Assembly: GCA_947481115.1 (NCBI GenBank)
Contig: CANKEI010000002.1
Location: forward strand, 1-39,511
Direction: 5' to 3'
Length of the DNA stretch: 39,511 nucleotides
DNA from: a bacterium
GTDB lineage: Bacteria; Babelota; Babeliae; Babelales; JABDEC01
Both the position numbers and the translations under genes were made by a program. This document shows positions 13,985 to 36,193 of the stretch, one piece after another; positions within the stretch are counted from its first letter, which is position 1; each line of letters starts with the position of its first letter. The notes under the pieces were generated by a model. The model was not told the DNA's origin and made no database searches. It saw only the letters and a list, made by a program, of their open reading frames with translations.

Positions 13985-14500
13985 ATGAACCTAAAACCAA
14001 AATTGACACCTAGACTTTCAAATAGCTTATTTAATCAGTTTTTACAAAAATCCAGCTGGGGTTTTACTCTAATTGAACTAATGATCGTAGTGGCGATTAT
14101 CGCTTTTTTATCGATTATTGCAGTACCTAATATCATGAATTTTTTAGCAAAAGCCAAACGCACCGAAGTTTATGTAAATCTCGGGGCCATTTGGGCTGCT
14201 GAAAAATATTATTATAGCGAGCATGGTCGTTATTCTGATGCCTTAACTGGACCTAATGGGATTGGTTGGCGCACCGAAGGTGAGCCGTTATATACTTATG
14301 GTTTTGCGGGTTCTGAAGGCGTAAATTATATGATCGGTAAATTAAAAGCTAGCGGGGCAGATTTAGGTAAATATTCCAGCGCTGGATCAGACGGGTTTAC
14401 TGTAGTCGCCATCGGTGATATTGATGGGGATGGTAAATTAGATGTGATTACCATGAATGATCGGAAGCAGCTTAAAATTGTCGAGGATGATTGTGCTTAA
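13985..14500 (+). CDS. prepilin-type N-terminal cleavage/methylation protein (type IV pilin or GspG-like pseudopilin)
   Basis: A 26-aa leader ends in G, followed by FTLIELMIVVAIIAFL. The mature part is about 145 aa with a C-terminal DxDGDGKLD acidic loop. Confidence 0.85.
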   Translation: MNLKPKLTPRLSNSLFNQFLQKSSWGFTLIELMIVVAIIAFLSIIAVPNIMNFLAKAKRTEVYVNLGAIWAAEKYYYSEHGRYSDALTGPNGIGWRTEGEPLYTYGFAGSEGVNYMIGKLKASGADLGKYSSAGSDGFTVVAIGDIDGDGKLDVITMNDRKQLKIVEDDCA

Positions 14501-14507
14501 ATCACTT

Positions 14508-14565
14508 GCTCGCAACATCCCCCCCTCGACTGACGCTCGGGGTGAGCGGGGTTCGGGACGAGCGG
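14508..14565 (-). repeat. long copy of the GC-rich palindromic repeat family
   Basis: GCTCGCAACATCCCCCCCTCGACTGACGCTCGGGGTGAGCGGGGTTCGGGACGAGCGG. Its reverse complement is identical over 55 nt to 28944-28998. It sits between convergent genes. Confidence 0.9.
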
Positions 14566-14657
14566 ATCAGTATCAATTCCTGAGGTATGTACAGAGAGTT
14601 ATTTTTTATAATCTAAAACCCGAATTAGAAATTTTTTTATAATTAGCCAAACATTTC

Positions 14658-14903
14658 TTAACAGTTCCAGCAGATTTGGCGGCAATAGCCACGTACGCCT
14701 TTATGCTCATCAGTGATGGCACCAGTCGAGGCTACCTTGCATTTCCAACCACTGCCATAATCGCCATATGCCGCTACTAGATCATTGCAATTGTCGACAG
14801 CTGTCCAACATGGCACACCTTCAATTTCGCTATCATGATGATGATAATGGGCTGATAAGTTAGCAGCTGATAATAATAACAATAAAACTAATAATTTTTT
14901 CAT
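14658..14903 (-). CDS. small secreted Cys-rich protein (6 Cys) with a His-rich segment after the signal peptide
   Basis: GGAG SD plus ATG 14903. MKKLLVLLLLLSAANLSA, then HYHHHDSEIEG and a 6-Cys mature part. The 5' module is shared with the 15576 gene. Confidence 0.75.
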   Translation of the reverse strand: MKKLLVLLLLLSAANLSAHYHHHDSEIEGVPCWTAVDNCNDLVAAYGDYGSGWKCKVASTGAITDEHKGVRGYCRQICWNC

Positions 14904-14916
14904 GATAATCTCCAAA

Positions 14917-15274
14917 TTAATCTTGTGTTAATACGCAAATGCCAGAATTTTCAGAATATGACTCGCAATGTAAATCATTTAAATAACCACTACATGGATT
15001 TAATAAATTTGTTTTACAACTATTAAATAACCCCGGAATATTTTTAGGGTTTTGATAAAATTGGCTATTATAACTGGATGGTATACAAATCTTTTCACCA
15101 TTGCCATTTCCTAATGTTTGACAGAAAAACAATGCCCCGGCAACACTGCCATCACAATATGTTGGATCTTCAGTTTTACATAAAGTAAAGCCGATATCAG
15201 CACCTAAATTTGTGTGTGTGTGTGTGTGTGTGTGTGATTACAACCATTATAGTTAAAGCCAATAGTTTTTTCAT
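14917..15274 (-). CDS. small secreted Cys-rich protein (8 Cys), frame-split at a (CA)13 tract (candidate phase-variable, currently OFF)
   Basis: ATG 15274 gives MKKLLALTIMVVI(TH)4KFRC*. Another frame is open from the tract to 14917 (97 aa, 8 Cys). Confidence 0.65.
15211..15236. repeat. perfect (TG)13 / (CA)13 dinucleotide microsatellite
   Basis: Counted directly: 26 nt of uninterrupted TG on the plus strand. Confidence 0.97.
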
Positions 15275-15331
15275 AATACTCCCAGAAAACATATGACAAA
15301 TTATTTTTTAGTATTAATTTACAAAACTCAA

Positions 15332-15576
15332 TCAAGTACAAACACCTAAAGGGTTGTCGTTAGCCAAGAAGCCACAGGGTATACATTTTTTTCCTCCGTA
15401 TTGTTCTTCACAATTAGTATCTGGCATCGGGTTAGGTGGTCCTAGCAAAGGTGTCCCATAAGGAGGGGAACAAAGCACAACCGTATCTGAAGAGGCAGGA
15501 CAGTATGCTTTTACGTTGTGTGTGTGTGTGTGTGTGTGATTATAGCCATTATAGTTAAAGCTAATAATTTTTTCAT
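15332..15576 (-). CDS. small secreted Cys-rich protein (6 Cys), frame-split at a (CA)11 tract (candidate phase-variable, currently OFF)
   Basis: GGAG SD plus ATG 15576 gives MKKLLALTIMAIITHTHTHTT*. The frame carrying the Cys-rich part (NVKAYCPASSD..GVCT) has no leader of its own and only a TTG at 15622. Confidence 0.65.
15517..15538. repeat. perfect (TG)11 / (CA)11 dinucleotide microsatellite
   Basis: Counted directly: 22 nt of uninterrupted TG on the plus strand. Confidence 0.97.
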
Positions 15577-15683
15577 GATAATCTCCAAATTTTGCATAAA
15601 ATATTAATAAACGGGGCCCCAAATTTATAAAACTTAATTTATAAAAAGCAGCCCCGTAGATTAATTTATGCTAGTTAATTGTC

Positions 15684-16106
15684 TTACTTTATAACGTATT
15701 GGCAAGTGCCTGCCATGCCCCATAGGGTCATAGCTTCATTTTTATCAGGACTGCAAGTAAGATTTGATGGTTTTTCTTCGCCAGCACCACATGCACCTCT
15801 TTCACCCACGATACACGGCGAACCATTACCATAAGCTTTATTTGAGTGCTTTCTAGTCCATCTTTGCTTTTTAACTTTTTGCACCTCTTGCCATTGAGCT
15901 TGAGTTACACAGTGGCCAGGTTTGCCATCACCCTTAATATCGCCATAACTAAGTAACGGTACACAAACTCTATTAACTGTAGAGCTAATTAAACCACAGC
16001 TATTTTGGGCACCCTGGGTACATTTATTTAATTTTGGAAAGGGTGAAGTGGCCTGTAAACCGGCTGCTGAAAGCAGCGCAATTGATAAAAATAATAACTT
16101 TTTCAT
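15684..16106 (-). CDS. small secreted Cys-rich protein (8 Cys)
   Basis: GGAGG SD plus ATG 16106. Signal peptide MKKLLFLSIALLSAAGLQA. The mature part is about 120 aa with 8 Cys and a basic central segment. Confidence 0.75.
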   Translation of the reverse strand: MKKLLFLSIALLSAAGLQATSPFPKLNKCTQGAQNSCGLISSTVNRVCVPLLSYGDIKGDGKPGHCVTQAQWQEVQKVKKQRWTRKHSNKAYGNGSPCIVGERGACGAGEEKPSNLTCSPDKNEAMTLWGMAGTCQYVIK

Positions 16107-16415
16107 AAAAGTAACCTCCGTATAATTAATGGGGCGGGGTTCCAAATATTGGTACCCCCATTGTTACTACACTCCCCGTAACATAAATGGTAGCAAAACC
16201 GGTATTTAGAAGGCAATAGTTTTGTTTAAAAAGTTACAGAAAATTAAATTTACAGGTTTAAAAAATGGTTTCAGGGGTCACTTTGACCCATTTAATATGC
16301 TTTTTTTTCTGAATAGTTTTATATTCGGTGACTTCTTGCATAATATTTTTATAAATATCTAAAGGTACAATCAGGTGCGTTACTTCGTTAATAGATTTGT
16401 TTTGTTGTTACAATA

Positions 16416-17168: not shown

Positions 17169-17181
17169 GATAATCTCTTGT

Positions 17182-17216
17182 CCTCCACATCCCTCGACAA
17201 GCTTCGGGACGAGCGG
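17182..17216 (-). repeat. short variant of the GC-rich palindromic repeat family
   Basis: CCTCCACATCCCTCGACAAGCTTCGGGACGAGCGG. It pairs in inverted orientation with 17281-17329 across a 64-bp AT-rich spacer. Confidence 0.75.
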
Positions 17217-17280
17217 TAATTAGTTTGCTTTTTTATTATAATAAAAATGTTTTACTAAAGCAGAAACAGACAGGTCATCT

Positions 17281-17329
17281 GCCGCTCGTCCCGAGTGTAG
17301 CCTTATGGCGAAGTCGAGGGATGTGGCGG
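17281..17329 (+). repeat. variant copy of the GC-rich palindromic repeat family
   Basis: GCCGCTCGTCCCGAGTGTAGCCTTATGGCGAAGTCGAGGGATGTGGCGG. Both conserved termini are present. Confidence 0.75.
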
Positions 17330-17387
17330 ATATAAGTGTTTGTGCTAAAAGATATTACAAAATGTGTTATTGTTGAATTCGCGCTAA

Positions 17388-36184: not shown

Positions 36185-36193
36185 CCCCCCCCC
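36185..36193. repeat. C9 (G9 on the coding strand) homopolymer, with 4 nt between it and the ATG of the J-domain gene
   Basis: Minus strand reads TTATTTTGGGGGGGGGTTTCATG. The paralog has G5 at the equivalent position (35319-35323). Confidence 0.9.

Follow-up and report, generated by a model that had tools for sequence, protein, structure and literature searches.

A pair of CA-tract genes for putative secreted cysteine-rich proteins: candidate translational phase switches in a Candidatus Babeliales (Dependentiae) genome

What is to be made of a gene in which the signal peptide runs into a long and perfect dinucleotide repeat, of precisely such a length that the remainder of the putative secreted protein is left out of frame? 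A gene of this kind, here called gene A, lies on the minus strand of the 39.5-kb stretch of DNA analysed below (the window), and the original prediction was that its tract is a candidate slipped-strand ON/OFF switch standing one repeat unit from ON. The window is chromosomal DNA (it carries pheT, gltX, metG, topA, mreB, ksgA, rbfA and genes for ankyrin and DnaJ proteins), and its MreB shares 99% identity with the one encoded by a Candidatus Babeliales MAG, with the next matches falling to TM6/Dependentiae and Babeliaceae MAGs.

On direct reading of the minus strand from 14700 to 16260, gene A has an SD-like GGGAG (15279-15283, minus strand) 4 nt 5' of its ATG (15274-15272), and the leader that follows translates on the minus strand as MKKLLALTIMVVI: an MKK start and a hydrophobic core of 10 residues. 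Translation then enters a perfect (CA)13 tract (15211-15236, minus strand; 13.0 copies at 100% match by TRF), which gives (Thr-His)n in the frame of the leader, and passes from THTHTHTH into KFRC and a TGA (15199-15197) four codons past the tract, giving the OFF leader ORF MKKLLALTIMVVITHTHTHTHKFRC (15197-15274, minus strand). A second frame is shut by a TAA (15240-15238) directly 5' of the tract. The mature-domain frame (14917-15210, minus strand) stands at +1 to the leader, begins at AAT 15210 and continues for 97 codons (NLGADIGFTLC...GICVLTQD, with 8 Cys) to a TAA at 14919-14917. On re-reading, every earlier coordinate and reading frame of the gene was borne out, from the GGGAG and ATG 15274 through the (CA)13 and the KFRC-TGA to the 97 codons and their 8 Cys. 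So was the frame arithmetic: when the tract was resized in silico, the gain of one CA unit (to 14) or the loss of two (to 11) fused leader and domain. Over a wider range of lengths the gene is ON, with the leader fused to the 8-Cys domain, at n=8, 11, 14 and 17, other lengths yielding a truncated product, and at n=14 the fused protein has 119 aa and the junction ...THT-NLGADIGF. The length of the tract is beyond chance, because even a CA run of 22 nt had 0.00 expected matches across 100 dinucleotide-preserving shuffles. A genome-wide surplus of simple repeats was rejected within the window, where the only dinucleotide runs of more than 4 units are the gene A tract and a further one at 15517-15538.

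This further tract belongs to a second gene of the same design, absent from the original prediction, which lies 300 nt upstream of gene A on the same strand. Gene B starts at ATG 15576 with an SD (GGAG) upstream, has the leader MKKLLALTIMAII and carries, at the position that the tract occupies in the gene A leader, a perfect (CA)11 (15517-15538, minus strand; 100% match by TRF). In silico resizing places ON at n=7, 10 and 13; at its 11 units the gene is OFF, and its leader ORF MKKLLALTIMAIITHTHTHTT (15511-15576, minus strand) ends at a TAA (15513-15511). The mature-domain frame of gene B (15332-15517, minus strand) comprises 61 codons (NVKAYCPASS...NPLGVCT, with 6 Cys) and closes with a TGA at 15334-15332. 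Leader and tract together form a 67-nt direct repeat of 91% identity (family D3) on the minus strand, with copy 1 at 15215-15281 and copy 2 at 15517-15583. Both window genes are OFF and each stands one unit from ON, gene A by a gain (+1) and gene B by a loss (-1), and the presence of gene B strengthens the case for a switch.

The two genes form the middle of a cluster of four, all on the minus strand and separated by 105, 57 and 13 nt. The first, upstream, encodes a secreted Cys-rich protein of 140 aa with an ordinary signal peptide (15684-16106), and the last, downstream of gene A, a secreted Cys-rich protein of 81 aa (14658-14903) in which an ordinary signal peptide, MKKLLVLLLLLSAANLSA, is followed by HYHHH. 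The start of the 81-aa gene is 13 nt past the gene A stop and the two genes probably share one transcription unit; given this spacing, an OFF gene A may also, by polarity, reduce how strongly the 81-aa gene is expressed. A promoter and terminator scan of the window performed no better than on shuffled sequence and gave no usable transcription-unit boundaries, and an Rfam search of the window returned a tRNA-Ser and nothing else. The cluster is flanked by a pilin-like gene (13985-14500, with an N-methyl motif) and by a prepilin peptidase gene. Genes A and B were considered as substrates of this peptidase and rejected, since the G|FTLIE-type motif and hydrophobic helix present in the pilin-like gene are absent from both.

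Related loci, gathered by exact look-ups of the neighbouring proteins in public assemblies and by homolog searches with the fused proteins, set the pair within a series. Syntenic loci carry the CA tract at the identical codon position with 3, 5, 7, 8, 11 or 13 units; alleles with 3, 5, 7 and 8 units are ON, and those with 11 and 13 are OFF. A more distant relative (L107) has (CA)3 in both genes and both are ON, the leaders reading ...IIVTHAY... in its A-like protein (P0007) and ...VIITHNG... in its B-like protein (P0005). A related species (L099, L100 and L101), with about 86% DNA identity in the flanking genes, has (CA)5 in both genes, again ON and ON: its syntenic gene A ortholog (P0001) has 116 aa at 73% identity and reads MKKLFLTLTLVVVTHT-NLKADIGFTLC, and its B-like protein (P0004) has 84 aa and is likewise in frame. 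The fused junction ...THT-NLG, which had been predicted by hand, is matched by ...LVVVTHT-NLKADIGFTLC in P0001, and the comparison of tract length and frame among orthologs that had been proposed as a check came out positive, with shorter, in-frame tracts at the same spot in relatives. In a close strain (L011, SRR24750914) the tracts are (CA)8 and (CA)7: the gene A position is occupied by a divergent allele, A' (P0002), called at 131 aa and ON, and gene B is in frame on a contig that starts inside the leader, so that its ATG lies off the contig. All four alleles of 5-8 units are thus in frame and called as full-length secreted proteins (P = (1/3)^4 = 0.012 for a random frame), and these alleles are functional genes. 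A non-syntenic distant homolog (P0006) has no tract and an ordinary signal peptide of canonical form, MQKLIYFTLFTSISSFA|A (...SISSFA|ATPG).

At the long end of the series stand the window strain, with (CA)13 and (CA)11 (OFF/OFF in 8 assemblies for gene A and 9 for gene B), and a metagenome contig (L008; JGI Ga0257141_1014340, 545-1005) bearing a single chimeric gene, also OFF, with the tract (CA)11-TA-CA. The chimera opens with the gene B upstream region and leader, passes at the CA tract into an A'-type mature domain and lacks the body of gene B, which suggests recombination between the 67-nt repeats of leader and tract; it starts with GTG besides, its tract is interrupted, and a further 1 nt is deleted from an A-run. 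The three long-tract alleles (window A, window B and L008) are all out of frame, an outcome with a chance of 0.30 and not significant. Within each lineage the tracts of the two genes are alike in length (3/3, 5/5, 8/7 and 13/11), a likeness that gene conversion between leaders could explain, as could a mutational or selective regime particular to each lineage. The gene order of L099 (4535-5880) is swapped, 126aa-A-B-85aa against 140aa-B-A-81aa in the window (14658-16106).

The leader-and-tract DNA pattern had 0 matches in the GTDB species-representative genomes and 2 in JGI metagenome contigs, namely the L008/L097 contig and a chance, eukaryote-like one (L098), and a look-up with the 71-aa internal TTG ORF of gene A returned no further contigs. 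Among species representatives, the nearest two by MreB (L017, with 99% aa identity, and L018, with 98%; about 81-86% in DNA) contain no orthologous tract. In these two genomes synteny ends directly past ksgA, and the arrangement of pilin, Cys-rich and prepilin-peptidase genes is missing there.

Within the window strain itself no length variants were found, gene A having 13 units in 8 of 8 assemblies and gene B 11 units in 9 of 9, although these are consensus assemblies that report the majority allele only, several are possibly re-assemblies of the same reads, and the test is a weak one in either direction. The ON product of either window allele had no match among 5.8 billion clustered proteins. 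Assembly error, raised alongside the original prediction as grounds on which it might fall, proved not to be the case, the 8 tract-spanning assemblies being concordant at 13 units. It was also observed that five short contigs end inside the gene A tract or less than 50 nt downstream of it and that one starts 19 nt past it (L102-L106 and L012, near 15160-15236); such ends could reflect low coverage, the presence together of A and A' alleles, or reads that differ in tract length.

Taken together, the locus is best read as a pair of slipped-strand translational phase switches within a four-gene cluster for putative secreted Cys-rich proteins in Candidatus Babeliales (Dependentiae), a reading to which we give a probability of roughly 0.6. 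Four features of contingency loci coincide here: a perfect tract in the 5' region, toggling of the frame with tract length, an intact OFF frame, and polymorphism among strains that includes both ON and OFF alleles. Under the proposed mechanism, the codons at the signal-peptide end of both genes would have held a short ATC-ACA-CAY proto-repeat that grew into a perfect (CA)n of up to 26 nt. The gain or loss of a CA unit during replication would then move the frame by 2 nt, so that every third length would fuse leader and Cys-rich domain (ON), while at the lengths between them translation would end a few codons past the tract (OFF). Slipped-strand mispairing would in this manner impose a heritable and reversible translational ON/OFF control on both secreted proteins and, were the tracts to vary independently, four expression states would be available. 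At each ON length of gene A the residues T-H-T directly precede the mature N-terminus and could occupy the -3/-1 positions of the signal peptidase site.

The view of gene A as a candidate switch is therefore supported by the ortholog series, and switching within the population is what we infer from it. Length changes would have to be reversible in this strain and frequent enough to be useful, and the switching would presumably be adaptive, for example by varying the proteins exposed to a protist host. Levinson and Gutman (1987) reportedly found that poly-CA/TG tracts of this size undergo frequent frameshifts in E. coli, the more so when mismatch repair is absent. Several observations count against a switch: the assemblies of the window strain are uniform in both tract lengths, neither window allele has an ON product among the clustered proteins, the three long-tract alleles are without exception OFF, and the interruption and 1-nt deletion of L008 look like decay. 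Genes mutS and mutL are present in at least one Dependentiae bacterium (PMC6561590), and mismatch repair, if present in this organism, would damp dinucleotide slippage, which likewise counts against a switch.

The main rival to the switch is recent pseudogenisation, in which a neutral, runaway expansion of CA units, with tracts possibly copied between leaders by gene conversion, has slipped both genes out of frame and left them dead and decaying, with no adaptive switching at all. We consider this unlikely, though it deserves to be weighed with care. It would readily explain why the OFF/OFF lengths are fixed across every window-strain assembly, why alleles of at least 11 units are all OFF, and why L008 combines a GTG start, an interrupted tract and an added frameshift. 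Against it, both tracts are perfect and both downstream frames fully open, the chance of which at the stop-codon density of the window is about 7e-4 for the 97 codons of gene A and about 0.01 for the 61 codons of gene B. The Cys scaffold has also been kept: all 8 Cys of gene A are retained in the orthologs P0001, P0002, P0007 and P0006, and Cys are conserved in the gene B domain too. Gene A has a dN/dS of 0.29 against the L099 ortholog, and when its amino acid changes are polarised with outgroups, 7 fall on the window branch, 4 on the P0001 branch and 8 are ambiguous, so that the window branch carries no surplus and shows no acceleration.

Gene B speaks less clearly. It is 91% identical to its counterpart in L011, from which it differs by 12 non-synonymous and 2 synonymous changes and by two indels that each preserve the frame; the in-frame indels weigh against pseudogenes, whereas the 12:2 ratio could represent relaxed constraint and would, as a pattern of substitutions, fit either that or diversifying selection. 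Between the window and L011 (14622-15530) the mature domain of gene A has no DNA match at all, being replaced by an allele of 45% protein identity, while the 81-aa gene is 99.6% identical. The divergence of the two strains is confined to both tract-bearing genes, a localised pattern typical of contingency loci or of diversifying selection. The open frames, perfect tracts, kept Cys, dN/dS of 0.29 and lack of acceleration argue against long-standing decay. Two further points count against the pseudogene explanation: each gene stands exactly one unit from ON, and a perfect dinucleotide tract of 22-26 nt is prone to slippage, so that an inactivation of this kind would be reversible.

A second alternative holds that the OFF alleles are in fact expressed, either by translational recoding or by RNA polymerase slipping by one CA unit, and that the tract sets a low and noisy level of product. 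The codons of the tract lend themselves to this, as tRNA-Thr (on ACA) and tRNA-His (on CAC) could each find a perfect match again after a shift of 2 nt, gene A being rescued by a -2 slip and gene B by a +2 slip; moreover, leaky expression that depends on frame and repeat length has been described from frameshifted (AG)n mod1 constructs (bioRxiv 10.64898/2026.04.01.715767). That study, however, concerned a different repeat in an E. coli reporter, and rescue was weaker under a native promoter (bioRxiv 10.64898/2026.04.01.715767). At the present locus there is neither a stimulatory structure nor a known slippery heptamer, Rfam found nothing, and the short-tract orthologs are plainly in frame, so that recoding is not a conserved feature. 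It appears an improbable explanation overall. That the tract length or frame is a sequencing or assembly artefact is very improbable indeed, for although dinucleotide repeats are prone to PCR stutter and a number of short contigs terminate less than 50 nt from the tract of gene A, a 26-nt tract sits well inside read length and identical lengths recur in 8-9 assemblies from at least two pipelines, covering the records of six BioSamples and further ENA assemblies.

The switch reading can be extended, at the price of being distinctly more speculative, to a combinatorial variation system in which independent slippage of genes A and B is coupled to gene conversion that keeps the tracts of their leaders alike in length and to recombination at leader and tract that shuffles or deletes mature-domain cassettes. 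The cassette shuffling and deletion are proposed because L008 is chimeric, L011 has another allele in place of gene A, and L099 has the two genes in swapped order. Such a system might, in addition, include leaky decoding of OFF alleles by slippage of plus or minus 2 on the CA repeat. On the evidence of these few loci we think the extension rather doubtful.

To our knowledge, slippage-based phase variation has been described almost entirely in cultured animal pathogens. The closest parallel in mechanism is found in Helicobacter pylori, where CT repeats in the signal-peptide coding region of oipA switch the gene on or off (PMC10564699). In oipA (hopH), as in sabA and other Hop genes, a perfect dinucleotide repeat in the 5' signal-peptide region sets the frame and control is translational, and for oipA both the repeat number and the ON/OFF status differ among strains, as they do here (PMC10564699). 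The differences are equally plain: the unit here is CA rather than CT and there is no sequence homology; the products are Cys-rich, presumably secreted proteins of 60-100 aa rather than beta-barrel outer-membrane proteins; and the organism is an uncultured, probably protist-associated member of the Dependentiae, with switching proposed on the strength of sequence whilst that of oipA has been observed. No homology to Hop proteins was found with Pfam (E <= 1) or with a profile search of 1.84 billion representatives, and the likeness is one of mechanism only.

The opa genes of Neisseria offer a second comparison: CTCTT pentamers lie in the leader region of 11-12 scattered paralogs that switch independently, and recombination among them generates new alleles. 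As with opa, the locus described here has several paralogs with a repeat in the signal-peptide region of each, and independent, combinatorial switching is proposed for them; unlike opa, it consists of two adjacent genes with dinucleotide tracts, and recombination between leaders is suggested by the chimeric contig L008 only. The type III mod genes of Mycoplasma, with their (AG)n tracts, resemble genes A and B in having a dinucleotide repeat inside the ORF and frameshift ON/OFF control in a reduced-genome bacterium (PMC3498834; bioRxiv 10.64898/2026.04.01.715767). Their product is a cytoplasmic methyltransferase (the basis of a phasevarion) and the repeat is not at a leader/mature boundary, whereas the proteins here are presumably secreted. 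A full-text literature search for phase variation in Dependentiae found no paper on the subject, the two terms co-occurring only in a review of bacterial methyltransferases. The mechanism is a familiar one; what is new is the phylum in which it is proposed, together with so clean an evolutionary series and the occurrence of the tracts as a pair.

Dependentiae are widespread and mostly uncultured; the few cultured isolates all depend on protists as obligate parasites, and their predicted secretomes are very large (PMC6561590). A switchable, fast-diverging pair of secreted proteins, if that is what genes A and B encode, would point to molecules at the host interface of these bacteria, and would suggest that bet-hedging by hypermutable repeats plays a part in interactions between bacteria and protists in freshwater. 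If the combinatorial system were true as well, it would be the first contingency locus described in the candidate phylum, and the first in an environmental bacterium that probably lives inside protists. The graded series of 3, 5, 7/8 and 11/13 units at one codon position provides a clear natural example of a switch arising from a proto-repeat in a signal peptide.

The proteins themselves belong to a narrow family. Pfam returned nothing for the four small cluster proteins at E <= 1 other than one sub-threshold chance match, and the profile search of 1.84 billion representatives with the gene A family found 5 relatives only, four of them of about 116-131 aa. An AlphaFold2 model of the gene A family, built on a 3-sequence alignment, had a mean pLDDT of 50.9 and a pTM of 0.34, a quality too low for comparing folds. 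One large protein (P0008, 2397 aa) contains 21 separate stretches that match positions 20-42 of the gene A profile, a segment containing Cys, and may consist of repeats with this Cys motif as their unit. In the neighbouring 81-aa protein the mature N-terminus is His-rich (HYHHHDSEIEG) and kept in all relatives; it echoes the (Thr-His)n of genes A and B, and a His-rich N-terminus may have a role in the proteins of the cluster, such as the binding of metal.

Two further repeats in the window merit a brief description. On the minus strand a G9 homopolymer (36185-36193) lies at the RBS position 4 nt upstream of ATG 36180, the start of a gene for a DnaJ-domain protein of 268 aa whose N-terminus is hydrophobic. 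The homopolymer is G9 in each of three assemblies and might act as another repeat-based site of regulation, or be just a G-rich SD. The other is a short, GC-rich dispersed repeat, of which the 11-mer core GGGACGAGCGG has 6 exact copies in the 39.5 kb (at 2657, 14555, 17206, 17282, 28944 and 36724) against 0.1 expected, with a larger element at about 14505-14600 and 17181-17330. One pair of copies forms an inverted repeat, the copy at 14538-14563 is where contigs are broken in several independent assemblies, and at the equivalent spot in L099 a GIY-YIG ORF is flanked by the same element, which may be a REP- or MITE-like element of this Babeliales lineage.
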